Part shown: positions 1-44,960 of the stretch, one piece after another
Layout of the letters: each line of letters opens with the position of its first letter
Numbering within the stretch: position 1 is the stretch's first letter
Assembly (NCBI GenBank): GCA_973895155.1
Contig: OZ316897.1
Coordinates: 11,059,832-11,123,831, forward strand
DNA from: Marsupella aquatica
Lineage: Eukaryota; Plantae; Marchantiophyta
Direction: 5' to 3'
Length of the DNA: 64,000 nt
The notes under the pieces: model-generated
Databases searched by the model: none
What the model was told of the DNA's origin: nothing
The model's input: the letters and a program-made list of their open reading frames with translations, nothing else
Program-made: the position numbers and the translations under genes

Positions 1-1128
1 AAAAACCAAGAAGACCATGCATCCCCATCTCCTCACAACTTTCTCTCCAATTGTGGTTCTTCTCCCCATATAGATGACGAATCAATGATCTGCCCACATT
101 CCCCTCAATGTGCATCGGATCTAACAAGTGATTAATGGGCAACTCTGACCAATATGGCAATTGTGACAATGCAGACAAACGGGTCATGCCACATTGGAGA
201 ATTTGTAATGGATCATCTGGGTCTTGAACTCTTTCCCATACCTCTCTCCAATATGTTGGATCCTTTTGCTGAGGTTGAGGACGAGTATCGGGTTGGCCAT
301 CATTAGTATCATACAAGAAATGATCAGTCCTCCAAGGATGGTCTTCTGGAAGATATTTGGTATGGCCAATGTAAACTATCTTACGCAAAGTAGTTGACTT
401 GCGTCTTGCCACACCCTCCAAATCTGGTCCGGACAAAGGGCAAGCTCTATAGCCTGATGTTTGCAATCCAGAGATATATCCAAACCCTACGCTTGATCAA
501 TACACAACCAACCAATGAAAGTAAGTTAAATGATACAAATTATAACCAACAATTAATAATTAATAAGCATGGTGTAAATAGATAGCAATGGAAATAAGGG
601 TTTAATACCCTACCTGGAAAATCATGCATGGTCCACATAAGAATGGCCTTCATGGTAAATATGTGGGATAAACCTCCAGTGTTGTCACGTCCGTCATAAT
701 AATCCCCCGAACAATCCACCCCTCTCCAAAGTTTCAAAAGCTCATCAATCAAGGGTTGCAAGTAAATGTCAATCTTTTTTACTTGCTTAGGACCAGGGAT
801 GATCATTGAGAGTAGTAGATGACCTTTCTTCATGGCCATCCATGGAGGGATATATTGTAGTTTGTGAGAACAACAGGCTATAGTGAATATGGATTAGCTT
901 TACCTACTAATGCAAAATGACTGATACCATCTGCTGCCAAGCCAAGTCAAATATGTCGCGGGTCTCAGTTTTGAATTCACCCCATCTGCCCTCTACAAAT
1001 TGATTGGCAAGAGAGTCTACCATCATCCGCATGGTACTAGAGTATGTACCCATATCCGAACGATGTTGTGAGTGCCAGACCATATACTCAGCCAACTCTG
1101 CACAACGATATTGATGGCGCAATCGAGG
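1..1128 (-). pseudogene. CACTA Tnp2 (Transposase_21-like) transposase, degenerate, 5' part deleted, runs off the window
   Basis: Motifs PRLRHQYRCAELAEYMVWH, LSMIIPGPKQVKKIDIYLQPLIDELLKLW, AILMWTMHDFPG, GYRACP and RKIVYIGHTKYLPEDHPWR are present. There is an intron at ~492-611, plus frameshifts. Confidence 0.9.
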
Positions 1129-1968
1129 GCTAAATTTCCATTCCTAACAGGGTCATCGTCAATCATCCGACAATGCCACGGTGGCCTAATGAACACCTCA
1201 TCTGGGTCTGAGTCCATCCTCAATGCATACACCCCCCAACTTGGGTGTTGACGCAACAAAATGTTCCAACTCTTTGCGTTATATACAACCCCAATATAAA
1301 GGAAAAGGTGCTCTCCATCGAAGCCACATCTCCATGGCTTTGGAGCTCGCTTTGGAGGGACAACAATGTCTTCCAAAGCATATAGACCATATCCTATATC
1401 AGCACCAATAGAGGACTCATTCACTATCCAAGGACGGCCCCATATCTCCATAGGTTCATCAATAGGAATGTAATCTGGAAATTTGAAGACACTGGGAGAA
1501 AAGTCTTTCAAAACATCTACAGCCCTGCCAGTGAGATAGGATGCTCCAAATCGACCCTCAACGCCAATGTAATCTACATAATTTGTTGGAGGACGATCAC
1601 TATCTAACACCCCCTCCCGGATGTCTATGTGGTCCATAGGCTCGTACTACCGTCTATGTCTATGAGACCGTGCTTGTGTACGTAGGACTCTTGAAGTCCC
1701 AACCTCTGGCCACTAGTAGAAACCGGGGCATTTCATGACCAGACCAGTTATGACAGGCTTGACCACCATAGTGCTTTAATAAAATGTCAGTCTTATGGAT
1801 GTGACCTCACATGACTTGACAGTCACTAATGAGTCTACATAAGATAAGACACTAGAGCTTTGAAATTATGAACAATGGATAGTCCTAGTCATGCCTAGTC
1901 TAAGTAATATAAATGCAGTTGGTCCAACCACGTCCAATATAGTCATAAATTGGCTTGAACATTCTCAT

Positions 1969-4609
1969 TGTGGGATTAATCCCGTTACTCCCACTTGGGC
2001 AACTTCCATTTTACCGTGGGTATAACCACCGTGACAGCAAACAGCAAATAGTTACTCGTAACAACAAACGGGTGGTAAAATTTTTGGAATTTTTTTGTGA
2101 GTCGATATTTTTTGACTAGCGCCCGGAGCTAGTAATAGTATCGCCTTACACTAGCCAAAAATAATTATGTTAAAATTAAATTATTTTGAAAATTGTGACT
2201 TTTAATGACACATTTTTAGATTGTCTAGTTTGCTCGTAACAGTAAATTTTTGCTTGTAACAGGAAATTTTTTGCTCGTAACAATAAATCTGTTTGCTATT
2301 TGCTGTCACGGTGAAAACCCTCTTTACCGTGGGGGTGTGGCTCATGCACATGAACACTACAAAAGACCTTCAGTGAAACAGAGTTTAATTAGGAAAAGAC
2401 TATGAAAAGTTTGCTTCCTACTTTGTGAAGGGTGTGTGCACCCCTCAGAAAGTGGCCCACAGGTCTGTTAGAGGATTTTTAGGCTTCATAGAGAGTAATT
2501 AGTATAGTCGAGACGTTGTTTTGGAGCAAGTATGAAATGGTAGAAGTGACAAAATGGTTAAATAGAAATAGGAATTAAGCTCTATGCACTTGACTTTTAG
2601 TTAGCAATAGGTGACATGAAGATTAGTGGAGAGAAAAAGAAAGATTTTTTTTCAGGCCATATTAGTATTGACATTTGATAGTCTAAATGTAAGTTTTAGA
2701 CAAGTGTTGGGATAGATAAACTAAGCTACTTAGGACTTGGGATAAATATTCTTCTTGGTGTTAGACTAGTAAGGGAATAACCAGGAGTAGTTCTAGTAAT
2801 TAGTCAAACTGCTGTAGTTGCTTGGAGATCACTCATGTAGAGGAATGAGTGAAATTTGGGGTTACACCAATTTGACTGTGCCGCTAAATTGAATAGCTAG
2901 CTTAGAGGGGGACTTAGAGGGCCTTGCTAGTACTGGCCAGTGATGAGGTGGAGAAAGGTCCAAGGGGGAGAAAATGTTGAGCCTAAAGTACAAGGGTCGA
3001 GCAGGAATCCAAGAGACCATCGAAGGTTTGTGGCTATGGAGGCAGCAGCAGATCGGGAACTGTATCTTTAGCTTCGATTGCTCATTTTTGCATTGCATAG
3101 GTGCGGTGGATTTGTCTTTGGATGCTCTCGCGGATGGCAGCTTCGATTTAGGCTTTCCTGGTACACCTCAAAGCTAGTAGAGGTCACCATTTGACCTGGA
3201 ATCCAAAATTTCCCTGCATGTAAAAGCTGCAGCAGATCGGGAGATGTATCCTAGCCATTTCTTGATTGTTTTTGGATTGGATTGGGGCATTGGATTCGCC
3301 TTTGGATACCCTTGATGCTATGAGCCAGGAATCAAGCCTCCCATCAGCTGCTCGAAGCTGAAGGAGCTCAAAGTTCAGCCCGAAAGTTCAGGATTTGGAA
3401 TAACAAAGGCCAAATTTAGTGCTACGGTTTAGGGAGCTGTATCTTTGGCATTCTACCATCATTTTTGGATTGGACAGATGGATTGGGATCGTCCTTGGAT
3501 TCCCTTAGAGGACATGCATTCGAATCAGGGCTTCAAAAGAATCGTTGGATGCTATAGGAGTTAGATTTGGGAGCCGGAAATTAGGGATTTGAGTGAGAAG
3601 AAGCCAAAATCTGAGTTATTGCTTGACATGAGGGCTAGCTCGTGGCTTTCCTTGTTGGTTGCTGGATTCCAGGGGAGTAGTTGAGGTGTCCCTGGTGGCC
3701 ATTCAGTGGAGATTGAGGTGCAGGACAAGGAGACAAGGAGAATTGATGCAAGATTGAATGTTCTGGTCAGGGAGAGCACAGTGTGACTGATTTGAGGTGG
3801 AAAATTTGTGTGCACTGCTGGTGGCTCGTGGGTGCTACTCAGGGATCCAAGGAGTGATACCAGGGCAAGTGGGCACCCCAAGGTTGAGTATTGGAGAGAT
3901 CAGAGTGCTATTGGAATCCACGAGAGAGATTTTAGGGCTAAAATGAGTGCCCAGGATACAATGTCAGAAATTACTGAGTTACTACTAGAGACCAGGGAGG
4001 AGCTACTGGAGTAAAAATTGAAGGTAGGAGCTAGGAGGAGGTACCCATGGAGGCCAAAAGAAAATTCAGCTCAGGAGTGATGCATGGAGGTTTGTGAGAA
4101 CTTACCTAGGTAGTGAGTAGGACATTTAGAATAGATGAGCTGCAAGTTAGCCAAGTAAATTTCAGTTTCACGCTTTGCAAGAGAGTAATTAGATGCATTG
4201 GATGCTGTGATAGGAGGTAGAGAAGAGACAAGGAGGAGAGCAGCTCCTGAGAGTGAGTGAGCTCTCAAGTTTCAGCTATTTAGTTGTACAAATTTTCAGT
4301 TTCAGGGGCTTGTATGTTGTTGGCTGGTGGAAGCTATGTGCATTTTCGCTCAAGCCAAGCTGATCAGCAGCTGTAGTGTCCCAACTCTAGGAAAGTAGTG
4401 TGTGTATGAGAGAGGGTTAAGCCTGGAAGATTCACCTGTGTTGGAAGCTTTGAATTGTGAGTTACATAAAGCAGCCCTCTTGACTTATCTCACTCTATTG
4501 TCCTGTTTTTGATGTTGTATATGACTGGTGGGTTTGTATTATCTTCCATTCAGTCTTATGTTGAAGGTTCAGAAGTATCAATTGGTTGTGCATAGTAGAC
4601 TGTAGCACG
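1969..4609. mobile_element. Probable solo LTR nested in the small CACTA
   Basis: Starts TGTGGG and is non-coding and purine-rich. It is flanked by the direct repeat TTCTCAT (1962-1968 and 4610-4616). The right end is CACG rather than CA, so the boundary is uncertain. Confidence 0.5.
2019..2322. mobile_element. Mutator-like MITE
   Basis: Inverted repeats CACCGTGACAGCAAAYAGCAAAYAG (from 2027; complement ending 2313). An 8-9 bp TSD TTTACCGT(G) occurs at 2010 and 2323. Confidence 0.75.
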
Positions 4610-6560
4610 TTCTCATTTGAAAATGCCGAAGTATGGATTTGGTCATTATTAGTCACAAAATGTGTCTTAAAGCCTAGTCACAGATCTGACCACTCGATTT
4701 CAATCACTTTAAATAAGAAGCTATGTCAAAATTATGACTGGCTTGATACCCCCAAAACTTTAGTCACAAGGAGTCATGGGCAATCGTAAAACCTAGTCAT
4801 ATAACACCCCGTTTTCTACTAGTGGGCCGAGATATTGGTTCTCCCTCTACATGCTCATGTAAGGGGATAGGAGCTTGGGGCTAAGAGGAGGATGGGCAAG
4901 GGGGGCTGCAAGCAAGTCTCTAGCCCTTGCTAGGAATCCTTCTAGCCACACAACCTCATCAACCAAAGGAGGTGGTGGTCTACGGGGCACCTATTTCAGC
5001 ACACAATAAATTAGTATTATTTAAATGCAAGCCAATTGGAGTTTCATGAATGGAATTAAATATTGGCCCAATTGGAGTGTCATGCATGGAATTAAAGGGG
5101 AGACATATATATTACCTGGCTAGGCAAGTACCCTGGCGTATCACCCTCATGACAGCCATAGTTCTCAAGTGCTCACAAGTCTTCCAAGCATGTCGGACCA
5201 CAAATCCCTTGCATCTCACACACTAGCAAGGTATGGGCCCTAGTAGAGCACAAGGACGCTCAGAGGGAGGGGGTGGAGGAACCTCCCCCTCTAACGAGCT
5301 CGTGTTTGAGTCTGAATCCGACGCGCGTGGAACTATCGGATGTAGACCGGGATGTAGACATCTACATATCATACTCATCCATCCAACATGTAAGGCGCAT
5401 TCAACAACTTATCATGTTTAAAACCACAATTTGAGAGATATATAAACATTAATTGCCCTACCTCAATGATACTCGTTGTCCGGGTGACCATGTTTTCTGG
5501 TAAGAGCATGTTGGCTCTTATGAAGTCAACCTTGCATGCCCATAAGTTCTACACTAAAACCAAAATAATAACTCTTGTAAGAAGGGTAGTGGGTATTAAG
5601 AAAGGTTCAGGTGAAACTAATATACTATTAAATCCTATTTCATTATACTTGCGGATTAACACCTCTCGGAAACTAATTTTTCTACAACGTATGATCCTAA
5701 TATCTCCAAGAGAAAATGAAATAGGAATGTCATCTGGACTCCTAGTATTTAATTAGATCCATGACTTTAATAGAGGACAAAGGTAATGCACTATCACTCC
5801 TCTCGCTAAAATACTATTGGGTATACTATTGGCTCATTAGAACTCATAACAGCAGCTACAAATTGAGCTCCAAAGTGATAGGTTAAATGTTGCCTTATGG
5901 ATGGCTTGTCTAAAAGATGGACTCTAACCAAAAATGACTTATGAATGGGAAGATTTGGGATATCTCTCCCTCTTGGAATCATAATGATTCTCTTATTTCT
6001 TTGCTATCCGGGCCAAAGGATGCTCCTGGACCACCTCTAAGTTCTCAAAGAGACCTTGTTTCCTAAGGTCTCATCTATTAAGTCTACCACTCATTCCTTT
6101 GCTATCCGGGTCAAAGGATGCCTCATCACTATGTACATAAAGCAAAGAATAGAAGGGAAAGATGAGAGAAGAAAAGAGGATCGCTTCGACACGGAAATTA
6201 TCAAAATGTGGGAATGAGGAGAGAATGTCCCTCACCACTTTATTTATACTGAATCCAAGAGGGCATGAATTATGCCCAAATGCTTGGATGAAAACCAAGT
6301 GGCACACATCCAACGTAGGAATATGTGATAATACTATTGTAATCAAAACAAATGATGCATGCAAGTAAAATAACTAATGCATGCACCTAAAATAATTTGT
6401 GCATGCATGCACCATGTGGCTTGCATATTTGCTCACCTTGCACGCGTATAAAATAACTAAGGCATGCAAATAAAACAATTTGTGCATGCACCTTGTGGCT
6501 TGCACATTTGCTGACCTTGCATGCACATAAAACAATTTGTGCATGCACCTTGTGGCTTGT

Positions 6561-8532
6561 TGTCAAACACTTGTCAAGGAGCTTAAGCGGCTTTTCTCCC
6601 CAAAAGACTACATAATACCTGCTCCATATCATACCAGGATCACAAAGGATTGACAAAACTTCTGAAATGTGCCTACAATGACTAATCACTCCATACATAA
6701 GTAGTTTCAACTCTCCACTTCTAGAGAGGTAGTCCCCTTGACTACTTTTGTACTCACACCCTTCCCCTCTTCTCTACTCCAAGGATCAGCAAGGGGGATC
6801 TCCGCTCCAAGCTGTCACCTTAGAGAAGAGTCTCACACAAACACCCAAGAACCAAAGTACTTTCCTCTTCAAGCTTAAGTCTCCTCAAGACCCTCAAAGT
6901 AGTGTTACCCCTCAACCTTGCCCCCTGACCTTGGTTTGGGTCCACACATTCCCTTTGAGCTCTAGAGAAGGCTCCTCTATCTAAGGACTCTTCCTCTTGT
7001 TCTTACTTCTTGTTAACACCATACACCAAGCAAAATACTTTCCACCCTCAAGCTATAATCCTCTCTAAGTCTCAAAGTAGTGCTCTACCTTAACCTTGCC
7101 TCTTGGCCTTGGTTTTGTACTGGCACATCCCCTTCAAGCTTAGACCAAGATTACATCATAGCATGGACTCTTCTCTTGCTCTCATATGCTTCAAATGCAC
7201 TCACACTTAATGGTCACAATGAAGATTGGCAAGTCTCCTTTTATTGCATCACCTTTACAACAAAAGTTCACTACACATTCTCCACACTAAGCATGGATCA
7301 CCTCTCCCTTCTCAAGCTTAGCCCTACCTTGGCAAGGTAGAGATTCCACTTAAGAGATGAGACTCCCGGTCCCTAACAAATGAAAAATTTCTCCTTATAT
7401 ACTATTCTCCTTCCCCACCACACCAAGGTAGCCCACCAAGGACCAAGGACCAAAGTAGAGGACCAAGGACCAAGGTAGAGGACCAAAGTAGCCCACCGAG
7501 GACCAAGGACCAAGGTAGCCCACCAAGGACCAAGGACCAAAATAGAAGACCAAGGACCAAGGTAGCCCACCAAGGACCAACTAACTACCAAAGTCACACT
7601 ACAACAAAAGTCCAACTAACTACCAAAGTCACACTACAACAAAAGTCCAACTAACTACCACTCCCACTCAAGCTCCTTCACCTTGTGATTGTCTGGTCTA
7701 TTCAACCATCTCCTAGCCGCCCTTGTGCTTGACTTATTCCTGCCTTGTGGTAGCCTTGTCGAAGCGTTTTTACACTTAGTCGGATTTCGTTATTTGGGAA
7801 AAACTATAATTCCCTGACCCATATTGTACCCACCGCCAAAAATCACCCATAAGGCCAAAAGGACTTTTGAGTATATCCATAGATTTTCTTGACATAGGGC
7901 TATGTCCTGGTTTACTAAGATCTAAACAAAACCCTATAACCAATTTTCTAAAATTAGGTAAAGAGGGTTAATTCTTATGTTTTCCAAAATTCTTCTCAAC
8001 TTTGAGATGCTCCCAAAAAGTAACCAAAGGTAACCAAGTTCTACCACAAGTTTCCAGGGATAGAGTGGACCATATTTAACATATTTTGCAACTTGGAACC
8101 CCTACCTTTTCCCATCAGCTATTTTTCCCGAGACCCACTATTTGGTAACTTTAAGTTTTGCCAAAATACTTACAACTCCTAGGTTAAGACCCCACTTGAC
8201 TTTGTGACTTTTATATGTGGTCTAGGGACTACCTAGCACCTATAGGGTGAGTCTTAGCAAAACTTATCGCTCAAAAGTATCGGTCATGTCTTCGGCTCGA
8301 CTTGCCGACTATCGTAACTTTTTTCCGCCCTTACCAAATAACTTACTCAACTCTTGATACTTCTTAGAGAAACATGTCCTCTCCCTCAATTTATTTCCCT
8401 ACTCTACTTCCCTAGTTATTAAGTTATCTTAAACCTAACAACTCCGCTAATCACTAAACTATGTAATTACTACTTCTTGAAAGCAAAAAACTGACGCATT
8501 TCCTACTCAAGCCTCCCTTGAGCCATTCCACA
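6561..8532. mobile_element. Solo LTR (~1.97 kb)
   Basis: TG...CA ends with a perfect 5-bp TSD CTTGT (6556-6560 and 8533-8537). It interrupts a tandem repeat in register. A homologous fragment occurs at ~23991-24205. Confidence 0.88.
7421..7660. repeat. GGACCAA-based minisatellite inside the solo LTR
   Basis: Many GGACCAA / GGTAGCCCACCAA units are followed by duplicated CAACTAACTACCAAAGTCACACTACAACAAAAGTC units. Confidence 0.9.
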
Positions 8533-11884: not shown

Positions 11885-14800
11885 AGCTTAGTGGCATGAG
11901 CTAGATATGTAGTGCATGGTAGCTTTTATACTAGCATATATGTACCATCTAGTATAGTAAGCTACCTAGGCTACTACATATTGTACATACCCGGGTGTTT
12001 CCCTTTTTGAATATGACATTTTGAGCTTGTACATATAACATTCTTTTGCATCAATCATAATTTAACCCAATTTGGCCCATTTCACCCTAAAACTAACCCT
12101 AAACCCTCAAATACCAACCCCATGAGGCCCACTCTTCTATCAAGAAAGAATCACCCATGTCCGTTACTAGTCCAATGCAATATCCATCAAAAAATCACCT
12201 AATTATCCCATGCTTTTTGTATCGGGACATCCGATACTCTGCTCTTCGCAAAGTCCTATACTAAATGCATCGGGCCCCTCATCCAGCAAGCATGACAAAA
12301 CTCCGGTGTCCGATACGAAAGACTTTGGACCATCCGATATTAAAACAATGGGATTTTCCGATACATGCAACATTGGACCTTCCGATCTGTAATCCAACGG
12401 ATGTTGCGATACTAAAAGCATCGGAAATTCTGATGCTATGAATTACGCACATTGCAAAGCTTCTGGTAACGGAAATTCCGATATGATATGTATCGGACGC
12501 CAAGTTTTGCAATTAAGGTCACCCAAGTGGATATCTGACTCTCTTTGCATTGGATACCAAATATTCCAAAATGTTTTGCTTCGGAAAACCGATGCAGAGA
12601 GAAACAAAAAATCCAAAGGTTGTCCGATGGTCTGTGTCCGATATGTGGAGAATGGGAACATACAAAGCGGGTTACATCGGAAGTGCCAAATTTAGTGTGC
12701 AACTTTCCTGAAGGGATCCGATGGAGATGGTATCGGATAAAGGTCCAAAAATGTACTAGAGGAAGTGCTCCACCATGACCAAAACATACCAATTATGACG
12801 TTGGGTAAGAGATAATGGACCAGCAAAATCCAAACTCCAACGATATCCCAAACCCATGATCGGCAACGGATGGAACTGGGGAGTGGGAGCATTAAATGAT
12901 GCTCTCACTCTATCACATAACACACACTTAACTATCAACTGCTAGACATGAGTGTGCATACCACACCACCAATACTGTGTCTGCAGCAAGCTATAAGTGC
13001 GCTTCACACCAAAGTGACCCAACTCCTCATGCGCATGTCGCACCAAATGTACTCGTTGTGATGGTTTTGGTATCACCAACACCCTACAATCACACAGTAC
13101 TCTCAAAAGATGGTTTCCCTCCTATCAAAACCTCTTGGCTCTCTGTAGAACCCTGTCACGCTCCTTGGCATCAACACTGCCAACAATAGAACCACTACAC
13201 AGATATTCCAACACTCTCACATCATTGTGAATATCTTGCTGTCCATAAGTTACCTCACCAACATCCACATCTGAAGACTCATCATCCACTCCATTCAATG
13301 AGGTAGAGTCCACAGATCCACTATATGCTGGCACCCAACAAAGAAAGGCAGATGCTTGCAATCCTGGCACCATCTCCTTATCTAACTCATCATGCCATCT
13401 GGCTCCAGTCTCATCCTCCTGACTGGTACATGGATTGCGGCTCAATCTATCTGCATCCAAGTTCACTTTTCCAGGCCTATGCACCACCTGTAAATCATAC
13501 TCTTGTAACAACAATGCCCATCGTGTAAGCTTCCCTGTAAGCTTGTCAGACTCCATTAACCACTTAAGAGGCTAATGATCAGTGATCAAGGTGAAGGGGT
13601 TACCAAACAAGTAGTAACAAAAGTGTGCAACAGCCCACACTGCTGCCAAACACTCTCCCTCATAAGAGCTATACTTAGCCTCTACTGAATTGTTTGATCT
13701 ACTGGCATAAGCCACAACAAACTCATGCCCCTCATCATCCTTCTGAGTCAGCACTGCTCCAAGTCCTACTCCACTCCAATTAGTGTGTAGCTGAAATGGT
13801 CTCCCTGAAATGGGTGTTCTCAAAATAGGGGATGATGCCAGCCTTTGCTTCAAATTCTGAAAGGCATGCTCCTGGTCATCACCCCAAGTCCATTCCTGAT
13901 CCAACTTAGTGAGTATGGTTAAAGGTTTAGCAAGCTGGCTAAATTCTTTAACATACCTCCTGTAGTAGCTCGCCAATCCCAAGAATGCACAAACTCCACT
14001 CACATCAGTAGGACAAGGAATCTGTGTAATGGCCTCCACTTTAGTCTGCTGTACAACCAATCCCCCTGGGTATATAGTGTGGCCCAATACTCAATCTGGT
14101 CTTGCTTACACTTGCCAGGATGAAGCTTCAACCCAGGTGCTCTCAATCTCTCCAACACAATTTGCAAGTGTTGCTGATGTTCTTCCACAGTAGAAGAATA
14201 GACCAAAATGTCATCAATATAACATTTGACAAAATCCAAACCAACGAGGATTCGATCCATGACTCTCTAGAACTCAGTTGGTGCATTCTTCAACCCAAAT
14301 GGTAAGAACAACCACTGATACAAATGATCTTTGCCATAAGAATCAATCCCCCATAATGTTGTCTTGGACCTATCAGCATGCCTAATTGGAAGCTGATGGT
14401 ACCCTACCCTCAGATCCAATGAACTGAAAACCTTTGCATGCCCCACAGCGTCAAAGATCTCCTCAGGTGTGGGCATGGCATATCGATCAAATTTTGTCTG
14501 GTGATTAATAGGTATGTAATCACCACACATGCGTCTACCTGTGTAATTGCCATGTACATCCTTCTTGGCTCGCATCACTGTGGCAAATGCATATTCCCCA
14601 TATGAAATCTCCACCAATCTAGTCTCCAAAAAATCTTGAGTTATGCTTTGAATCAAAGCTCTCTCCATGTCACTATAACGGTATGGTCTACAAAAGATTT
14701 GGTGCATCACTAGCCAATTCAATTTGAATACTAGGGCCCTTCAATGTCCCCAAATCCTTTATGCTGAATGCAAAACAATTCTAGTAACTCTTCAGGAATC

Positions 14801-15109
14801 GATGCATGCAATGTCTCTCCTCCCTGTCAACTTAGAACCAATCTCTGGCTCCCAACTCTCCACCAAATCCCTAATGTCTTTTTGTAGAGTAGAAGAGATA
14901 GCTGATGATTGCTATTTAGCAGTAGATTGAGCAATGAATCCCTTCTTGCTCAACAATCTGTCCAGCCTTGGCCAATCCTACCATAGGTCCATGGACTGTC
15001 TACTTGCCCCCAGCTGTGGTCATCATTGTCTCAGTGGACCGCAAGCTCACTAATGGACGATAAGTAACACCAGCAAAGCGCATCCGCAACTGTTCAGCTA
15101 CTCCAAAGT

Positions 15110-16070
15110 TGATAATCCAAGTCAAGAAATTCAAATCCATTGCTTGACCAAGGACCTAGCGGCGTGAACTCTCTGACACCGAGGCAACTACAGTGGTCCT
15201 TGTCAAAAATCCCATAGCACGCTCTCTCTCATCAGTAGTAGGTTCTACTAACTACTGGAGAGTTGTGTCCCACACAAGTCCAGGGCCACCTGCTGTGAAT
15301 GCATATGAAGTAGAGTGGCTCACAAGAGTGGGTAATGCACAATGTGGACGCCCAACGACATTGACTACTGCCAATGGAGGTTTATCAGATTGGGTCACAC
15401 CCTGTGCACGACGCCCTGGATCTAAAATATCATCCACCACTAAGGCCGTTGAGTGTGGAATGCTGTCAAATGCGCCCTTTAGCACCTCACATGGGATAAA
15501 GTTAGTCCACCACAAGCGTGGACAATGTGCACGAAAACCCATATGTGCAACATCCAATAACAAAGCAGGTCCAATCCAAGACCTCACTTGGTGAACACTG
15601 GCAACAATCCAATAACGATCATCACCTAACAATGGCACATTCTCCAAAATATATGTTGGAGACTATGTCTGATGTAGCTGGAGATGACGCAGCACCCGTA
15701 ACATCTCCCAAAACAATGCAGAGCATGCTAGATCATGAAGTCCATGCCCAACGCCAGCTCTAGATTGGCCTTGACATGGCCAACTAGCAATCACCAAATC
15801 AATGAGGCCAACACGATGCAAATGATCCGCCCCAACAATGAAATATCAGCAAGTAGTGCATGCTGATAACCACAAACAACATCCACTGGCAGCAACTGTG
15901 GATATCTATCCACCAACATAGCCACATGCCGCAATGAGACCCTCCATGCTGCCTCATCTATCTCCACATACAAATAACAACACATAGGAATTCCTGCCTG
16001 AAGAATAGCAGCCAATCTGATGCTAATCCCACCAAATAGATCCAACAAACAAATACCCTTCAGTGGATAC
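15110..16070 (-). pseudogene. DNMT3-like C5 cytosine DNA methyltransferase domain within Gypsy pol
   Basis: Ordered motifs: I LLDLFGGI (~16025-16052); II YVEIDE; IV IDLVIASWPCQG (Cys codon 15774-15776); VI YILENVP; VIII LLDVAHMGFRAHCPRLWWTN; IX EPTTDERERAMGF; X RR*VLGQAMD. Frameshifts and stops are present. Confidence 0.9.
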
Positions 16071-17610
16071 TGTCAAGCAATAGGAGTGGTATCCAATGGT
16101 GAAAGAGTCACCGGTCCATCTGCAAGAGACTGCTTTGCTCCGGACTATGGTGTAAAAGCATGATGCCATGCATCATGTACCAATCGTGTTGTTGCCTGTG
16201 GCAAGGCCTATCCAGTGCCCACACTGGTGGCACCACACTGCCAATAGGTAATCCCCACATGATCTGCTCCTCATCTGACTCCTCCAATGGTGGAACATCT
16301 ATTGCATGCGCATTACCCTCAATCAAATCATCAGGTCCAGTAATCACACCATTGAATGCTGCCAAAGACAATAGTGTGGATTTAGGGCCTCCCATAGGTC
16401 AGGTTTATATGACACTGATTTATTCCAAAAATCAAGAATAAATCCCATGGGGTAGAGCACCGTACATCCCACCAATACATCATATGACTTTGCCTTAGTC
16501 AAAATAGCTTGCGCCTGTATCTGTGAGCTATTTGTCGCATGACCTCCCTGAATCCTTAGATCAAGTGGTCTCCTTGTGATATGCTATATAGGTGACATAG
16601 GTCCCTCCAATGAAGTCTGAATGGGAAAGGGACAAGCCTCCAAATCCTCTGGACACAATCCCAATCCACGTATGGTAGACTTTCCCAACATCAAGGGCTA
16701 AGCACCAGTATCCAGTAACACTCTCTCTGGCTGGTATACTGCTCTAGAAGGCCCAACTTATCGGAAGATACCACTCCGATTATCCAATGACACAACACTA
16801 GGTTTCAACCTAGTCCTTTCAAATGCAGGGCATGCTAGTAAATCCACCAACCTTGCTGCTGCTGCATGCCATTTCTCACTAGTAGCAATAGGTGACATGG
16901 TCTCCATTGCTTCAACACTACAAGCTACTTCTCCATGGGAAGCAACAACTGGAGTGTCCTCACAGAGTGTAGCTGCCAATTTGAACACTTCTACAGGACC
17001 AACTCCCAAGTTTAGCATGTCTGTCGCTGAAAATAATGGGATGCGTACTATGGTAGTAGCCGCCCCCAATAGGGTACCTATCATCCCTGCTGCATCACTA
17101 CCTGATTCTGCCAACTTACCCCCACTAGGGTTTGTTCGAACCGGGTTCTTAGAGGCAATCTACATTGTCTCTGATAATGTGAAAGACTGGGGAAGCTTTG
17201 TCTGACGATGAGCATCCCCTCTCAAAGGGTCCAACTCCACAATGGCCCCTCTAGGTTCAAGAGCTTTTGCTACTCCCCGTGTCAAAGCTGCTGATGCATC
17301 AATGTGTGCAGTGCCACACATGAATCCCATGGTGGCAAGGTCTCCATCAACTTCATAAGCTGTGGAAGGACCATGGGATGTGGAAAGTCCATAGGATGTA
17401 GATGCCCCATCACCAAAAGTAGGTCTCACCTAGGAACTAGCCATGGCAGCTAGCTATTGCTTCAAATTGAGCAATCTTAGCATCCTTTGGATCTATGGTT
17501 ATAGCAGGGGCAACATCACCTCCCTGTCTCCTTGCCGGTGGCATGCCACGGCCACATCCACCAACTCTACCTCCTCCTCTTCCTTGATCATGTGTACGAG
17601 GTTCTCCCCT

Positions 17611-18087
17611 GGGTATGCAACTCCCCTTTTTATAAGGCAAGTTTTTAATTCCTTATAATGGCCTTATATCCAATTGACCATCTTAGATTTCATTTTAGTC
17701 TACTAAAGTCTTGTACCTCTGAACTCAAGAAATCCAAAAATGTAACTTAAAAAAAAAAACCAAACATGTTTTGATGTACAAAAAGTTGATCAAAACCAAA
17801 TTATATGGGTTTTTTTTTAATACAGGGGTCTACAGCCAAACTAGCCAACTTTTTAGGGTTTTTATTAAAATTTTAAAAATCTTTTAATAAAAATTACAAC
17901 ATGTATAGGAATATTTTTTAATTTCATATGGAAAATGAGGGAAACCAAACCTTTTATATGACTTGAAAATTTTTAAAAGTGGAAAACCCAGGTTTTTTCA
18001 AATTTTAATTATTTTGTATAGCCAACTTTTTAGTCTATATAAAAATGTAGACCCCTATCTATTATATAAGAGTTGCGTACCCGGGGG
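17611..18087. mobile_element. AT-rich MITE inserted in gag
   Basis: TIR GGGTAYGCAACTC with a ~9-bp TSD TYCTCCCCT (17602-17610 and 18088-18096). The gag reading (...HPEL*RG / EPRTHDQGRGG) resumes across it. Confidence 0.75.
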
Positions 18088-20711
18088 TCCTCCCCTCTAT
18101 AACTCAGGGTGGAGTGAGAAACATCTATCCTTGGTGTGTCTAGGAGCTCCACAATGATCACAATGTCGCTCATCAGGCGCTGATGCTCCCCCTGATCCTC
18201 TATGAACTGGGCAATATCTTTGTGCATGATCCTCATCACAGGTCCAACATCTTGACTACTGTCCAGCATAAGAGGGCACAGGTCTCTGGCTGGTAGACTC
18301 TCGTGTAGTGGACTTCTCCCTCTGGCTCTTCCGTGCAGGGTGTGGTGTGGATGTAGATGCAGTCTTTGGCGCTTCATTGCCAAATCTGGAAGTTACCACT
18401 TTCTCATTCACCATATTGAGCTCAATGCGCTCAAAAAGTGTAAAAATAACTACCAATGTCAGTGGGATCTATGTCCCTAAGCGGAGTGACATCTTTCACT
18501 CTGCGTTGCAATTTTGTATCCAGAATTGCATACCAAAACTGGACTGCCTAGGCCTTTGTCACTCCTTTGGTGACAATGATCAATCTACGCATACGAGTGT
18601 ATACCTCACGTAGACTCTCTCCAGCCTTGCGCTGAAACTCCTGTAGACCCTTCAACTTATCAGTTCTCACATCTTGATAGTTCTACTTTAGTACCTCAAA
18701 GAATTCCACCACATGGTTAAATGTTGGCGCAACTCAAATCCCTATCACAATCACACCGGTAGGAGTAGCGGTGGATGCTGCTGGAGTGGTAGTAGTGGAT
18801 GGTGTGCCACTCTGGCTAGTGCTGCTAGAAGAAGCAGCAGTTGAATGTGGCAATGGGTTGGGCAGCCGCACTAGTGTCATAGGTGATGGACACATAATTA
18901 GGCGACCAATGCTGCCTCTATGCTTCAATCTCAACCAAATGAGCCTTTCAAAACTCATGGTAATCATCCATGGGTGGCCCCTCCAAATGTTGAAATAATC
19001 TCTTCCATGCCATGAAAGGGGTAAACATGGCATTATGCAATGTCTGCATATCGCACTACGTATCAAACTCTTGGATGAAGTCATCCAGATCAATTATGCC
19101 AACTGGACCATAGTATCGTCGACGTCGTGGGCCCTTCATAGCCCCGTACATCTCTTCCATATCCCACAACAAAGGTGCAATCACCTGATGACAAGGAGAA
19201 CTGGTCATAGAGTCCTCATCAGAATTATTGTCTGAAGCAACATTGCTGACTGCTACCAATGCCGCTGGCCGAAACTGTGCCCCACTCCAAGTGAAACCGG
19301 TCCATCGTCCATCGGGTAACCCAGCAGCACCAGAAGAATCCGTGGTGATCAACCTAACCTAATCTATGTGCTAACCCTAAGGGAGATTTGTCCCTCTCAA
19401 CACCACAAGCACTCACCATGGTGTGTTGGGCATCACTCCAACATCACAAGGAGAGAAATACGTAGCACAACTAGAATGTACGGTTGCAAACCCGGATCAC
19501 TCCTATGGAATCAAGTGCCCACACCAAACTAACATGGCGCATAATCAACTTTCTGACACACAAAAGGAAATGCAAATCAATATGACGATGTTCATAAGGT
19601 TCAACATATAGCCTTCACAATGTTTAGTGTCGTAGCTAGGAATCCATGCAAAACTGATTCAATCCATGCATCTGGATGAACTCAGAAGCATCAAAAACCC
19701 TAGGAGAGCTTATGATTTGGCCCAAAATGACACTCTAAATAAACCAGAATGTGTATAAAATTCCTAAGTGTTCATTTCTTAACATCAAAGTAGAAAGGAA
19801 TGTGTGTACACACAAGCACTTAAGAACCACGTAGTTAAGTGTGTGAAGAAGGAATAGCTTTGGGATGGGTGACCTCTCACTTGTAGTTGTGCACAAAATA
19901 GGCTGCTCCAAATTCAGCACCTTGCAAACTACTCCTCACGTACCAGCAAGCTGGCCCGCCCACTCCTGCTTTGCCCTCACGCCCCTCGTCCCGAGTTGCC
20001 TTGAAGCCTCTAAACGCCGAGATGAGCCAAAGAGTGAGCCCTTCACGCCCACAACGCTTTGCTACGCCAAAACTAGGTTCAGATTTTGCAACATTCAAAC
20101 TCAGCTTCTTCGCTTCCTTCACAAAAAATCGCACATTGGCTACGGTCCACCCTAACCGCAACGCCCAGCCGAACCCTTCTGCAATGGACCACGCCTCAAA
20201 TTTGGCAACATACGCGACTATTGGCAGTCACTTTCTTCACAAGAACACTGGCGATCGGACTTTGCAACATACAGTCCGTCAGCGTAGCACAATCGTGTCA
20301 ATCCTGCAACATTTGCACCTCTATTTTATCACAAAAAATTCACAATCAAACATGTAGTACCTCAATCTACCAACGATCGACTCAACTTTGCAACATTGAT
20401 ACTCAATCCCTTCGCAAAACAGCAGATGGAGTGCACAACATTGATCAGCAACCCGAGCGCCTCTCGCCAACTTTGATCAGCACCACCGACGGTCCGAAAA
20501 CCGGTCACAACACGGCATCAGAATGTCTGAATGAAACTGAAGATGAGACTCGGGTCCCCACTTCAGATCCGCCCCAACAATCAAACTACCAATGATCCAA
20601 TCAAGCAACACAACACGATTCGAGATACTAACCACGAATCGTCAATCAAATCTCAAACAAATTTATGTTTGCACAATCCGCACAATAGGGTTCGAAGCTC
20701 AGATATTTTGA

Positions 20712-21540: not shown

Positions 21541-21942
21541 ATCCTGTGGTGGAGGAATTTAATTTGTAGCAGGGTAAATTGTGATGAGGAAGTTCTTGCA
21601 ATCGGGGTCACTTTGCTCTTGATGGAGTATGTCATGTGCATAGACATCACTACACAACATACATTGCTTGTCACATACATCTATTAACCATAGTCACATC
21701 CAACATCACAAACATAAAAGAATGGAATACAAGTGGAACTCCTATCCACACATGTCCAAAACTCACAATCACCTCCTTAGCTGGGAGTGAGGTTCCCTAA
21801 CTCTAGCTATCCATAAGTTCTACAAGGTTGATATACATCTTTTTAAGTGTGAAGATCAGGAGGCCACGTGCAATGGTGCCCGATTGATCACCTTCTTGCA
21901 ATCTATACTTTCCATGAGAACACAAATGGTAACTAGTTGGCT

Positions 21943-23990
21943 TCACCAACATTGAGGACACGACCATGATCCACTAGGACACCTCTAATTTAGTGGTGTC
22001 AAACATGACATGTGCCATCCTTTAGAACACTTATCACAAATCAACATAGTGGCTGCTCCGTGAGCAGATCCACACAACATACACTTCAAGTTGGCACAAA
22101 CATATATGGGCTAAGCTTGGATCTACAGTACCATCAATGTTTGAAAGGTGACATGGTGCACAATTGCACACATGATCCTTCCAAACCGTACCATCACATC
22201 CTTCCAACATTAGTACACCAAAAGGCAACACTTCACACACACATAAGATTGTCCAACCTGCGATCACATCAAGTGTCATTGGTGGTATTTGCTGCAAATA
22301 AACAAAAATCACCAGGATGAAATCGTCGAATCCTCGCACGATAACCTCCTCCATGAAGAGTGGCATACCTCAAAGTATCACAATGTTTGGCAATGGCAAG
22401 GTTGTCAAAGGCCATGGGCATGACTCTCTCAAAAACTCGTGCCCTTCACTAGTACATTTTGAGGCCTAGTCTGATTCTTGCATTCCGACTATGCCAAGAG
22501 TTGCCATTCTATTTCAATTGGATGAACGACTGCACTTTCTGATGTAACACAAATTGAACTTTGCCATTCTACTTGAATTGGACGAACACCATTCCATTCA
22601 AACTTCAAACGGACACCGTATCCAATTGTGGACACAACGGTTCCACTGCCCATGCCAGTCAACATTGGACCACATGGTCCAATTTTGTTTCAATTCTAAA
22701 TGAATCGTAAACGTCTTTCCAAAGGAAAGCTCAAGCCCATTTTTCCGATGGAGCTGGAATTGCTAGTTGTAATTCTATGAAGATCGGATGTTTCAATGCA
22801 AATTTAATTGGAAATTTTGATGTGTGATTAAATTGGAAATGGAAATTTATGCTCATGACGTAAATAATTGGTAAAGTTTTCCAAGCGCTCAAGGATTGGA
22901 GAAGCATGTCCAATCGTTATTAAATTGGATGTGTGATTTGCAACTAGAATGGGATCGGGGTCCAATTGTGAGTTAAACAGACTTAGTGAGCCATGTTAGT
23001 TAGGATTGGAAACGGGGTCCAAAGTGTGGTTGTCTTAACAAAATTTAGAAGTGTATAAAAGTCCCAAGAGTCTATATCAAACACCAAAATTGTCAAGCTT
23101 CCATGTGCAATGCACTAGTAAAGAACTACATAGTTAACCTCCATGTTGGAGGAATAGCACTTGGGTTGGGTGATCGCACACACAACCTAGCCAACCAATA
23201 GAGTTCAAATCTGCACACACACTAATTAGCCCGCCACTAGATTGAGAAAAAATATTGGCTCCACACTTTCTGTGGTTGTCGAATAGAGCTTTTGCAATTT
23301 ACGACATCACACATTGCATATCGATTCCAAAGTGCTCGGACCGCATGATGCCATACTAATAAAATTGGACATGGTTTTGCCATTGTTTTTGAATTGAAAC
23401 CTGATTTCCAATACCAGAAGAATTGGACTTTTTCGATCTTGGTCCGATCATGCTTACCCGATTGTTTGAGCATTGGAAAGTGCGATTGGACTAAAATTGG
23501 ACCACCGGTAAAAACGGCAATATTTCGCCGAAGACATCCGATGCATAGCAAATCGGTTTAGGGGTCATTTTTGTACTAGTACTTTATGAACACATCTTGA
23601 CCCAAACATCACGATCATCCAAATCCACAACAATTGTCACATCACGACAAATAGCCGTTGGCAAATCTGGCTCTCTACCATAGAGCAAGAAATAAGGTGA
23701 AGGACGCAAGTGATGCTTGTTGATTGAAATGGTAGCCCATAGCTAACCAAGGTAGTTGGAGATCCCAATCTCCCAAATGAACAACCTGCAAGGTAGCCAT
23801 ACTTACGCAATCCTCTCTTCATGGTTTGTACAACTCTCTTTGCCAATCCATCTGCCTCAAGATGATTACAAGAAGTAGTACGATGATCAATAAGAGCTTG
23901 CTCACACAAACCCTCAAACTTTCCACCGAATTCTGTGCCCTGATCAGTCAACACCTCAGTTGGTGCTCCAAAATGATTGAGTACTACCAA
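21943..23990 (-). mobile_element. 3' fragment of a second Gypsy pol: integrase core, C-terminal region and PHD finger
   Basis: FGAPTEVLTDQGTEF...ADGLAKRVVQTMKRGL, then RVFERVMPMAFDNLAIA, WKDHVCNCAPCHL, and CMLCGSAHGAATMLICDKCSKGWHMSCLTP...SGSWSCPQCW* (21946-22083). Confidence 0.88.
22447..23581. mobile_element. Non-autonomous CACTA element in the Gypsy fragment
   Basis: Termini CACTAGTACA and TGTACTAGTA with a 3-bp TSD CTT (22444-22446 and 23582-23584). AATTGGAC-like subterminal repeats are present, and the pol frame resumes across the insertion. Confidence 0.85.
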
Positions 23991-27796: not shown

Positions 27797-28676
27797 TTTT
27801 TCTTTTCCCTTCTTTTTCACTATTTTTCTTGTCTTGTCTTTTTATTAGATTGTGCACTATTTTATTGATTACCTAATATTTGTAATTCAACTCCTCTCAT
27901 GATGTAGCACTTCCTATGCATGGATGATATGGAGCATAGTATATGGCATGGATAATAGAGGGAGAAGCATGGTGTAGCATGAAGGGTACAACTGTAAAAC
28001 TGAATACTTTGTACTTTTCTTGGTTGAAATACTTGTTCACACCAAACATAATTATTTTCTTCTTATTCCTTTCTCAATTTTATTTTTTCCACATTGAAGG
28101 GAAAAGCTATTTGAATGACGATCGAACACTTTAAAAAGGCGCAACCATTTATTATAGTTTCTAATATCATGCATAATTAACATTCCCCACCGACACCAAC
28201 TAAAGGAACTAAATTGTCAATTAAAAAGACTTGAGAAAAACGGGTGCTGTGGCCAGCAGGAAGACACGCTGCTTTGTAGTTCAATCTACTTTGATCAGCC
28301 CACCTGCTATGATCGAAAGCGCGGCGAGGAACTGTTCAAACCACGTACGCCTTGCTACAAAAGCTGCCTTCTTACAGCTACGATCGAACAGATCACTCAG
28401 CTGGAATGGAGTATTTAGTTCAGACTTCAGCTGAATTTCACCAAAGCATCCCTCCACTTCTCGTCTGGAATTGAGAGAGAGAGAGAGACCAACCATTCAA
28501 GCTCTAGAGGATCGATCAAGCATAACTTCACAACCAGCGATTATGTACATGTCAAGTGCTCAATATCCGTGATCTGAGTAAGTGTAGAGGTTGTTTCTTG
28601 AGAGGCGGTAGTCAATTAGAAGCGTCTAGGAACGAAAACAGCAATCGAGGTTTGTTTAATTTGGAGGGGCTGAACG

Positions 28677-31503
28677 ATGGAGGTGAAACTCCTTTGGACA
28701 ATGATATGGTCTGCTACGGTCATATCATTAGTTGTTCCAGCTGCTGTCAACTCCGCCCCGGTCACGATCGACTTCAACGTGTGCGTACCTGCACACTACC
28801 CACTTAATCCGGTGAATCTCACGGGTCAGCAGGAAACTAGCTATTGCTGCCCTCTGAAGCCAACTAAGCCAGTCATAAACGGGCCCCCTCCTCTTTTGAC
28901 GGATATCATCAGAGTTAGAAAAGCTTCGCAATGCACGGATGCTGCCTACGCTGCGAAGATCGAGAAGGCGTATTCACTGATGAAAGCGCTGCCAGACGAT
29001 GACCCACGGTCGTTCAAGCAGCAGTGGTCCCTTCACTGCGCCTATTGCGGGGGTTCCTTCCTCACCACCAACAGCACCGGAGGTAAGGAAGGAATCGACA
29101 TCCACTTCAGCTGGCTCTTCTATCCGTGGCATAGGTACGCACACGTCAGGTCTCTAGCACGTAGTTCCAAATTATGCAAGTGAAGTAGATGTTTGCGGTC
29201 GGAGCCAGTGTCAAATGCCTCGATGAAGCTGCATGTCAGGTGGTGAAATCTCCCATGATAGATGAATAAGCTAGTGTTCAATGCCTCAATGAAGCTATCG
29301 ATCAGAAGGTGAATTCTGGGGCCTCAATTCCACGAGACTAAAATTTATAACAGGGAGATTGCTGAATTACTTTAACGGAGTGGTTGAGCAGGCTGGCTAA
29401 TCTTCACAAGTCGCTGCCAATCCCCTAGCTTGAGCTAGAGCAGTTTTTCAGCGTAAGATCGATGGACTTAACGGAATTGATGAATGAATGGAATGCAGGT
29501 GGTTCTTGTACTTTCACGAAAGAATCCTGCAGTCGCTTCTTGAGGACCCAACTTTCAGTCTCAATTACTGGAACTGGGACAACCCATACAGCGTGGGCGA
29601 TGGCTCGTCTAAGGATGGAGCGTGTCTGAAGCAGGGACATGACTTCCCCGCGGTCTTCAGTAACCCTTCGAAATCTACATACGATTTCAACCGGTCCGAT
29701 AATGCGAAGGGAAAGGGCCGCTTGCACTTCCCAGGTGGGTTGGGTAACTGCGATTAGGGATATAGGGGAATCGTGTTCATGAAGAAGCATTCTTTCAATT
29801 ATTTCATTAAAACAGGATTAGAAACTGACTCGTGTATCGGCTTTCTGTTCGCAGACTTCTTCTACATTCCAGCACTGTCAGAATACCTTCAGCCGAACTT
29901 CACCGCCAGTGAGGAAGCTGTGATTCTAAGTAATATGAATATAATGTACCAAACCTTAGTGAGCGGCGGAACCACTGCAGAAACGTTTATGGGCCGCCCG
30001 TATAGAGCAGGAGAGGTTAAAGGTGTGTACAACATGCATATGGAGATTATTAATGCAGTATCTCGTTCACATTCACTATTCGAAAGGTAGTCTTAACTTT
30101 AATTGGCTAGTAACAGGGATAACGTGGTCGCTCAAGCTGAAAAAACAGATAAGTTTGTTTCAGTTGGGGTCCGACTATTTAGCTTCAGTCGACAGAGTCA
30201 GAATTCTTACGCCTTCGGTAATTGTTTTGAATCTGAACAGGATTCCCAGGGCCTAGTGGAGGCGCTGGAACATTGGAATCGAGCGCTCATGCTACGGTTC
30301 ATTTCTGGACCGGAAGAGACCCACCTACGCTTGACGACATGGGACAGCTTGGACATGCTGCCCGTGATCCAATATTTTACGCACACCACTCCAACATCGA
30401 TCGCTTGTGGCAGGTAAATGAGAGTCCGAATGAACCTTTCTTTGTCCAGGAAACAATGGTTAGTCTAGTCATTCAAGCGCAGCTCGAAAATTTTACGGGA
30501 TCTACATAATTGTACTTAAGACACTTATTCACTATCGTAGGTGTGTAATTGTTTCATCAGCACTGCAGATATATGTCACGGAAACTGATCCAGTTCTAAA
30601 TGTTGATCGCTTTCTCCGGTTGTTGATGAAATAGGTCTGGAAAGATATCGGACCAATTTTTGGTCAAAAGCGTGAGTACTATTCGGACCCTGATTTCCTA
30701 AATGCGGAGTTCCTCTTCTACGACGAGAACAAGGATCTCAGAAGAGTGAAGGTAGAAGATGCGTTAGATACAACGAAACTGGGATATGTGTATCAGGGAG
30801 CGAATGATGCCGCATGGCTATTCCCAGACTTGACAAGGTAATAAATATAGTTGAAGAGTGCAATGACGTAGATCGAAGTTTTACCCGCACTAGAGATCGA
30901 TTACTGATGTCGTGAAGTTCTTCATGGTGGCTTGTGGCTTTAAAACCGCACATCGTACTAACTACGATCTGTCTAAATCGACGTGCTCGCATGCCACGAT
31001 AAGCTACTAATCATGATATCACCGGTCGTTACCCTTGCAGGTGCTCCAATTCGAGCTACTTGGAACTCATTGCCCAGGCAGAAGATTTGCCAGTGCCAAA
31101 GAAAACGGAAGGATATTATCATCTGCAAGCCGGGACACCATTTGTGCTGGTGATTGACAGACCGGACAATCCGCATGGAATTGAGGAGTTTCTCACGATT
31201 GACGGCATCACGCTGGACAGATCTTGCATTGCAGGGTTTGATGTATATGTTGATTTGCTTAAGCCTTGGGATTACCAGGTCGCTTCCAAGTGCGCTGAAT
31301 ATGGTGGGAGATTCACGAACATGGCTCAAAGTCAAAGCGTGTCTACAAAATCATTGGTCTGGAAGCAAAGTATCACCAGAACTTTAGTCGACATTCAAGC
31401 TCCAACAGCCCCTTCTAAAGTTGTGATTACTCTGATTCCCTTTTCCCAGTCGGGCGACTACGAAACCATCAAGTTTAAGTCCATAACCGTCAACACTAGT
31501 TGA
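28677..31503 (+). CDS. PPO: Polyphenol oxidase (type-3 copper) with secretory signal peptide; exons 28677-29134, 29499-29734, 29855-30022, 30241-30413, 30635-30837, 31041-31503
   Basis: CuA: HCAYC...[22 protein letters not shown]. CuB: AHATVHFW...RDPIFYAHHSNIDRLW. DWL-like DPDFLNAEFLFYDEN...LGYVY and KFDV-like GFDVYVD are present. All introns are GT-AG and frame-compatible. Confidence 0.95.
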
Positions 31504-44459: not shown

Positions 44460-44960
44460 TCATAGTTCATCCTTGGCATGGTGTTCAACCGTAACGATGC
44501 CATACGCTCGTGCTAGGTCGAGGGCTTTTTTAGCAATGTCCGGGGTCATTAGAGGAGGTTCTCCTGGTGTATTACGATCTGCGACAGGTTTCCCAACTTC
44601 CAGAAACCAGTGTTCAAATCCACCAGGGGCGTAAGAGAGCACCATGTGAGCGTTTTTATCAGATAAGTTGATGAATGAATGCTGAACATTCCTAGGCAAG
44701 TGAATGAAACATCCCTTTGTTGCAGGAAATGACTTGCCTCCAACATTCCATGTCAGCTCCCCATCAAGTATATACCAAGTTTCTTCCTCCCTCGTGTGTA
44801 TGTGGGGTGGTGTACCGACTCCTGGAGGCACAATGTCCTCAAACAGAGCATAGGTTCCTCCCGTTTCATTTGAAAGAGCCTTGACGGTGACGAGAACTCC
44901 CAGGGCCCAGACCGTAATTCCGTCAGCTACAGTCAGATGAGGCCAGAATGAGTAAGGCAC
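44460..44960 (-). CDS. Cupin-domain protein (bacterial quercetin 2,3-dioxygenase-like monocupin); true start unresolved
   Basis: Cupin motif 1 GTPPHIHTREEETWYILDG and motif 2 GCFIHLPRNVQHSFIN are present, followed by APGGFEHWF and ARAYGI. The ORF has no in-frame ATG near its 5' end; a possible splice acceptor lies at ~44927. Confidence 0.85.
   Translation of the reverse strand: MPYSFWPHLTVADGITVWALGVLVTVKALSNETGGTYALFEDIVPPGVGTPPHIHTREEETWYILDGELTWNVGGKSFPATKGCFIHLPRNVQHSFINLSDKNAHMVLSYAPGGFEHWFLEVGKPVADRNTPGEPPLMTPDIAKKALDLARAYGIVTVEHHAKDEL

Follow-up and report, generated by a model that had tools for sequence, protein, structure and literature searches.

The window, a 64,000-nucleotide stretch of Marsupella aquatica DNA, carries on its minus strand, between 19160 and 12762, a decayed Ty3/Gypsy element that comprises gag, protease (PR), a C5 methyltransferase (DNMT), reverse transcriptase (RT), RNase H and the N-terminal half of an integrase (Table 1). 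Its backbone is in the Ty3/Gypsy order, gag-PR-RT-RNase H-integrase, with an integrase of the DDE type. The Asp_protease Pfam matches on intact relatives, which are part of the evidence for PR, score below the curated cut-off. As the preliminary description had stated, this copy is dead: it is broken by frameshifts and stops, gag is interrupted by a MITE-like insert, and the integrase is cut at 12762. The damage in the DNMT consists of one frameshift near 15830, TAG codons at 15663, 15252 and 15156, and substitutions in motifs I and VIII, while more stops and frameshifts lie in gag, PR and RT.

Table 1 Features of the element and of the related fragment (window positions)
Feature	Positions	Strand	Evidence
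Broken gag; two zinc knuckles at 18249-18226 and 18162-18121	18088-19160	-	tblastn with Marchantia P0005, 40-73% identity; motifs
AT-rich MITE-like insert in gag, about 490 bp, short terminal inverted repeats	17598-18084	.	Joint skipping 486 nt, lower depth; ends
gag-PR linker and aspartic protease, DTG 16718-16701	16386-17477	-	Motifs, tblastn, Pfam matches of relatives
DNMT3-type C5 cytosine methyltransferase, motifs I-X linear	15108-16060 (about 16055-15110)	-	PF00145, homologues; DNMT3A best by sequence and fold for close relatives
In-frame TAG followed by CAATCA (UAG-CARYYA), candidate readthrough signal between Gag-PR-DNMT and RT	14906-14914	-	Sequence
Reverse transcriptase, frameshifts and stops, core 14698-14090, YIDD 14224-14210	14090-14860	-	RVT_1; motifs
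Connection domain and RNase H	13430-14087	-	RT_RNaseH, RT_RNaseH_2
Integrase N-half, including zinc finger and first catalytic Asp; CACTA-like insert breaks it at 12762	12762-13121	-	Integrase_H2C2; motifs
Separate family fragment: integrase C-half, CACTA-like insert inside, C-terminal PHD finger 22083-21949	21949-23984	-	tblastn; PF00628 E 2e-8
PPT-like stretch and B-type terminal repeat, right-end motif CAYGACA	21630-21790	-	39-nt match to L067 3' end; motif at 21636

No LTR pair around the element and no tRNA genes were found in the window. The separate fragment (23984-21630), which like the in-frame TAG at 14914-14906 was absent from the preliminary description, begins in the integrase about 25 codons past the break in the main copy, so that both pieces read like one circularly permuted element with unique DNA and other repeats between them; this look may be due to chance, to a tandem remnant or to a rearrangement beside the CACTA-like inserts. 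These two non-coding inserts (23581-22448, and 12761 to about 12165) have similar ends, and the first is flanked by a 3-bp target duplication.

A polyphenol oxidase gene lies at 28674-31503 (+), with eight protein matches (six from Calypogeia fissa; 58-73% identity) in one word-based search. Since this neighbour is closest to that of the liverwort Calypogeia, the host is, by this one gene, likely a liverwort, and the placement of the element in a land plant is upheld. The window further contains an LRR receptor-like frame of 1070 codons that gave no kinase match (36381-39593, +), a Transposase_21 fragment (540-893, -) and two short, single-exon-like frames on the minus strand, one with a CaMKII association domain (51460-51756; PF08332, E 1e-20) and one with a cupin (44460-44966; PF07883, E 5e-18). 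Our impression is that the last two look microbial and may be horizontal acquisitions in the plant.

The methyltransferase and its family

The DNMT motifs follow one another on the minus strand at 16054-16028 (I), 15976-15956 (II), 15800-15768 (IV, with its Pro-Cys), 15653-15636 (VI, ENV), 15533-15516 (VIII), 15230-15207 (IX) and 15152-15135 (X). The motif-IV piece alone passes the curated cut-off of PF00145 (24 bits vs 22, E 3e-5; Pfam), and the stretch 15842-15003, read with X at the stops, matched 57 proteins, the best with E 4e-132 and 75% identity. With this motif order, the profile match and an alignment to C5 methyltransferase relatives that is colinear and free of introns, the reading first proposed holds: a linear, non-permuted DNMT3-type domain lies between PR and RT on the same strand and has no introns.

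P0060, which is the closest intact relative and 79% identical across the domain, matches DNMT3A at E 7e-11, HaeIII at 6.5e-5 and DRM2 at 0.009. The predicted structure of a second relative, P0003, has a mean pLDDT of 70, mostly 80-96 in the domain, and all 33 listed Foldseek matches of this model are DNMT3 chains (best E 2e-16). The enzyme type of these close relatives is thus DNMT3 rather than DRM or bacterial, by sequence and by predicted fold. The element domain shares the C5 methyltransferase fold with the DNMT3 and DRM enzymes of host plants, DNMT3A being the best solved match, but it has no introns and no accessory domain and is not permuted like DRM. An Atlas search returned generic C5-methyltransferase clusters only, and in viral contigs the matches were all phage methyltransferases, with 27-53% identity (30 loci; 6 loci).

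The DNMT in this family is under purifying selection. The comparison of L060 with L062, two metagenome loci whose frames are open across the domain, gives a dN/dS of 0.125 for DNMT (315 codons), 0.13 for PR and 0.10 for RT; the PR rows of the window were out of frame and are left out. The window compared with L050 gives 0.17, with synonymous sites near saturation, and decayed pairs give higher DNMT values (0.30-0.54), as expected after insertion. The catalytic Pro/Glu-Cys pattern is present in 85 of 96 domains, and an ENV-type motif in 91.

Next to selection, copy abundance bears on whether a host DNMT3 gene or retrocopy had simply inserted once into a single dead element, as the heavy decay of the window copy and the other inserts it holds could suggest. 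The unique flanks are present, with no differences, in four public runs. In each of these, PR, DNMT and RT show an even summed contig depth, which exceeds that of the unique flanks at least 80-fold (63-70k over DNMT vs 190-247 in run X1; 4.3-7.4k vs 52-53 in run X3), a figure that stands for many domain-bearing copies and not for a copy number. One joint in one contig, among the 15 of 209 joints listed, skips the DNMT (depth 296 vs about 190,000). The 57 relatives include many Marchantia loci, several with full frames of 1278-1281 aa, as well as Calypogeia and Sphagnum. A metagenome scan that used the methyltransferase as bait, and is blind to relatives without it, confirmed 295 loci; among the best 80, six have the DNMT directly before the integrase, while the remainder, where long enough, read PR-DNMT-RT-RNase H-integrase-PHD. 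Level depth, the same position of the domain in Marchantia, Calypogeia, Sphagnum and most of these 80 loci, purifying selection and congruent DNMT and RT trees (see below) together refute a one-off insertion, the probability of which we regard as negligible. The DNMT is a family trait, as first supposed, and copies do have the PR-DNMT-RT layout.

Differences among the copies are mostly transitions (329 of 599 variant places in run X1 are A>G or T>C), a pattern that fits the decay of methylated DNA.

Termini and range of the lineage

The complete relatives have no LTR pair. Two full LTRs with a tRNA primer-binding site do not occur among them, and no TGG (tRNA primer site) stands right after A1 in four of four relative loci examined. 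Their ends instead have the layout A-coding-B-A-B, seen in L067 and L076 of the window's clade, in L075, L081 and L088 of a sister clade and, with a shortened B2, in L094. The termini read TGTCRYG...CAYGACA, and five of the six loci with both ends show a 4-bp target duplication; these features together show integrase-type insertion. A G-rich polypurine tract precedes B1, and the inner B1-A2 border reads CAYGACA-NN-TGTCRYG (L060:8653, L067:10344, L088:15276, L094:15217 and others), so that it resembles the border at which two integrase ends would meet in a circle. A1/A2 and B1/B2 have diverged about equally (91-94%), and both pairs were thus seemingly remade at each insertion. The ends of the window copy itself are lost, and all that is left of such ends in the window is a PPT-like tract and a B-type right end. 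These ends suggest an undescribed way of rebuilding termini by an integrase-type element, and programs that search for LTRs are likely to miss such elements.

A second homologue search yielded 101 proteins, with members from Closterium, Scenedesmus, Haematococcus, Chlamydomonas eustigma, Hariotina and Tetradesmus. Chlorophyte-type proteins have the DNMT after RNase H and before the integrase, an arrangement found in 73 of 147 proteins, including P0035, a spliced Marchantia model. The lineage also carries a PHD finger, recognized by PF00628 in the window fragment and located after the integrase in relatives.

We built quick trees of DNMT and RT with SH-aLRT support only and with the chlorophyte-type rows thinned to the named ones and every third; the DNMT tree has four phage enzymes as outgroup, and the trees hold no Klebsormidium or host DNMT3 sequence. 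In the DNMT tree the window groups with Marchantia, Calypogeia and Sphagnum (22 rows, support 100). Elements with a stop between DNMT and RT, described in the next section, group with support of 88 in the DNMT tree (with one long-branch intruder) and 100 in the RT tree (5 rows), and chlorophyte-type elements with 96 and 99. The chlorophyte branch (P0111-P0178; L089, L103, L104, L107, L109, L115) forms its own clade in both trees. The congruence would fit a single old capture after which the domain moved, or two captures whose donors were related. A further set of divergent environmental Gypsy proteins (P0056, P0171, P0179-P0185) has a long-branch methyltransferase before RT; those of its members that are included in the RT tree branch outside the main clade, and the set is perhaps a separate capture.

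A conserved stop codon between methyltransferase and RT

In the window, TAG CAA TCA (14914-14906) stands in frame with the start of RT and is the only one of the 101 TAGs of the element to be followed by CARYYA. The locus L060 has a single frame from 973 to 8227, from gag to PHD, in which the only stop is a TAG at 5083, between DNMT and RT. The window's group within the best 80 of the 295 loci comprises 40 loci, 28 of which reach this junction: the stop is present in 27 of the 28, and CAR-YY follows it in 26. These 28 loci belong to two subfamilies, 26 being of a moss type, some of them probably the same insertion assembled twice, and the other two being L060 and L062; with the window, three independent subfamilies thus give the stop context. 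The moss-type loci are placed beside Sphagnum P0042 in the tree. At decay stops within the loci, which served as control, CARYYA follows none of 578 and CARYY nine of 578.

At the sole locus without the junction stop, L061:6960, a tyrosine codon is found instead; tyrosine is the residue inserted at the readthrough stop of TMV. The TMV hexamer is matched exactly in the window, L060 and L062, and at five of six positions in the moss-type family (CAACCC, the final A missing). No conserved RNA structure was found 3' of the stop (folding z -0.03 to -2.7). Contigs over 14870-15175 show no alternative letter at the stop or hexamer, positions at the ends of a stretch going unreported in these data (the known 14888 variant and the control stop at 15156 are both absent).

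Database proteins agree with this junction. Of the 45 in the window's DNMT clade, 37 end 50-200 aa past the DNMT without an RT, because the in-frame TAG seen in L060 and related DNA splits DNMT from RT; four of the other eight are truncated, and the last four, all Marchantia gene models, continue into RT or RNase H. P0107 was considered as a further stop-type protein and was not counted, its ORF ending inside the start of RT and its cluster mate P0199 being fused. The DNMT had initially been taken as part of Pol; this has to be revised for the window's clade, in which it closes the Gag-PR frame before the conserved stop. In the sister lineages (the L074-L116 group, P0095, P0105, P0106 and Closterium) DNMT and RT are fused with no stop between them and the DNMT is kept, so that the stop is not necessary for its retention.

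Judging by the conserved context, ribosomes probably read through the UAG to yield the RT extension. The same signal, UAG-CAR YYA, gives readthrough of about 10% in TMV in vivo and of 6-10% in transgenic Arabidopsis (PMC2754532). As in TMV, to which the window, L060 and L062 correspond in the whole hexamer, one in-frame stop would set the ratio of short to long product (PMC2754532), and an in-frame gag-pol stop does so in Tj1, Tcry1 and Tosmo1-3 (bioRxiv 10.1101/2022.12.06.519325). In those fission-yeast elements the stop separates Gag from PR (bioRxiv 10.1101/2022.12.06.519325), whereas in the window's clade it comes after PR and DNMT; both PR and DNMT would therefore be made at the level of Gag. 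Elements of the plant cluster usually have a single ORF (bioRxiv 10.1101/2022.12.06.519325).

The stop could also be real while RT, RNase H and integrase are made from reinitiation or from a spliced RNA, with no readthrough. An in-frame ATG is indeed present at the third codon past the stop in the moss-type loci and at the fifth in L062, but the window and L060 have none there. Likewise, in the Marchantia gene models P0009, P0013, P0014 and P0035 a predicted splice connects DNMT with RT or RNase H, but the joins of P0009 and P0013 fall at different points, as prediction artefacts would; gene models of this kind splice across the stop. It also speaks against these routes that CAR-YY is preserved across three divergent subfamilies with differing flanking peptides, and we consider this explanation unlikely. 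Readthrough, which is also known for the env of SIRE1, is the reading that we carry forward.

Proposed mechanism and comparison with known systems

In the model that we propose, Gag, PR and the DNMT3-type enzyme would be translated as one frame ending at the conserved UAG, and readthrough a few percent of the time would add RT, RNase H, integrase and the PHD finger. The DNMT would be packaged in the particle at the level of Gag and capsid, where PR may free the domain, and the freed enzyme would methylate new cDNA ahead of integration. The new insertion would then arrive methylated, and host maintenance methylation would keep the mark. A methylated new copy may benefit from being silent or from resembling host heterochromatin, and the PHD finger would steer the integrase towards marked chromatin. 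We give this model as a whole, from the Gag-PR-DNMT frame and leaky UAG to packaging and methylation of cDNA before integration, an even chance of being correct.

That the enzyme is catalytically active on cDNA, with CG as its likeliest target as in DNMT3 kin, is in our estimate somewhat more probable than not. SymbioDIRS-Dnmt3 domains establish CG methylation de novo in yeast, while the KnitGypsy-Dnmt3 domain gave no DNA methylation there, an outcome called inconclusive in that study; human DNMT3B failed the same assay (PMC5890265). Intact relatives of the window element are CpG-depleted (o/e 0.35-0.55), a depletion that host methylation would equally produce.

The inactivity of KnitGypsy-Dnmt3 in yeast (PMC5890265), together with a Gag-level dose that suits a structural or nucleic-acid-binding function, could mean that the domain persists as a DNA- or RNA-binding module or as an RNA methyltransferase and makes no 5mC in DNA. 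We hold this to be quite improbable: most of the 96 domains still have the SAM-binding and catalytic motifs, related SymbioDIRS-Dnmt3 domains methylate CG (PMC5890265), and the predicted fold is that of DNMT3, not DNMT2.

It is likewise improbable, in our estimate, that the enzyme works mainly in the nucleus and in trans, on chromosomal copies or host DNA, and so curbs the family or alters the host methylome. Gag-level synthesis would provide excess enzyme for such a role, the stop uncouples DNMT from RT and so weakens the cis argument that the authors of PMC5890265 drew from a shared ORF (peer-review file), and a host-benefit model is raised in their discussion (PMC5890265). Against it, the DNMT is fused to Gag and PR and would thus enter particles, and in the sister lineages it is joined to RT or sits after RNase H and before the integrase, positions consistent with work on cDNA. 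Methylation of cDNA in the particle remains our preferred role for the enzyme.

More broadly, and only tentatively, we envisage a single ancient green-plant Gypsy lineage, spanning chlorophytes, mosses and liverworts, that has both a writer (DNMT3) and a reader (PHD). In one branch, to which the bryophyte elements belong, the Gag/Pol stop would have moved behind the DNMT, giving every particle enzyme at capsid level and fully methylated cDNA. Replication would proceed without LTRs or a tRNA primer, the ends being rebuilt from an internal, circle-like CA-NN-TG junction used by the DDE integrase. This extended scheme is doubtful as a whole.

The question whether retrotransposon DNMTs methylate their own cDNA, and why, dates from 2018, and the hosts known so far are difficult to study. 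Full Gag-PR-DNMT frames in Marchantia polymorpha (e.g. Mp4g09160, Mp5g06330, Mp5g06860 and MpVg00370), annotated as hypothetical, make the question testable in a model plant. If the model is true, a leaky stop past the enzyme would mean selection on the enzyme dose per particle.

The kind of element is already known from the charophyte Klebsormidium nitens. KnitGypsy-Dnmt3 shares with the window's family the Gypsy set, an intronless, non-permuted Dnmt3-type domain under purifying selection and the DIRS-like A-coding-B-A-B repeats in a Gypsy element; the legend of Fig. 4c describes it as a DIRS repeat structure with Gypsy domains (PMC5890265). Mainly because this layout is rare, both are likely to be one lineage, although no named Klebsormidium sequence is among the 57 and 101 homologous proteins and the likeness rests on the published description. 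The preliminary description had left open a related or an independent lineage: the repeat layout and the congruent RT and DNMT trees, which include Closterium, favour the former, and an independent origin is not favoured.

The two differ in host, a charophyte against a land plant, and in the coding frame: DNMT shares one ORF with RT and RNase H in KnitGypsy-Dnmt3, whereas in the window's clade the conserved UAG-CAR-YY splits them within the frame; the sister clades are unsplit. The text passages of PMC5890265 (de Mendoza et al. 2018) name DNMT-carrying elements only for dinoflagellates and charophytes and contain neither the PHD finger nor the 4-bp target duplications nor the junction motif; its supplement and figures may show the domain order and the PHD finger. 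In the passages concerned, a 2025 paper and a 2026 preprint mention Klebsormidium-type elements only as 'streptophytes'. Our literature search, with most subscription papers, Repbase and REXdb outside its scope, returned nothing on land-plant members, their readthrough or their ends.

Other retrotransposons also bear C5 methyltransferases. SymbioDIRS-Dnmt3 and SymbioLINE-Dnmt (PMC5890265) belong to different classes (tyrosine recombinase and LINE), and the EpiLTRs of Cymbomonas and Euglena (bioRxiv 10.64898/2026.05.21.726589) differ in having an enzyme sister to DNMT4, with DAM and a chromodomain. Set beside these systems, what is new here is the UAG-CAR-YY between DNMT and RT, the 4-bp duplications combined with A-coding-B-A-B ends, the PHD finger, and the reach of the lineage to Closterium and the chlorophytes.
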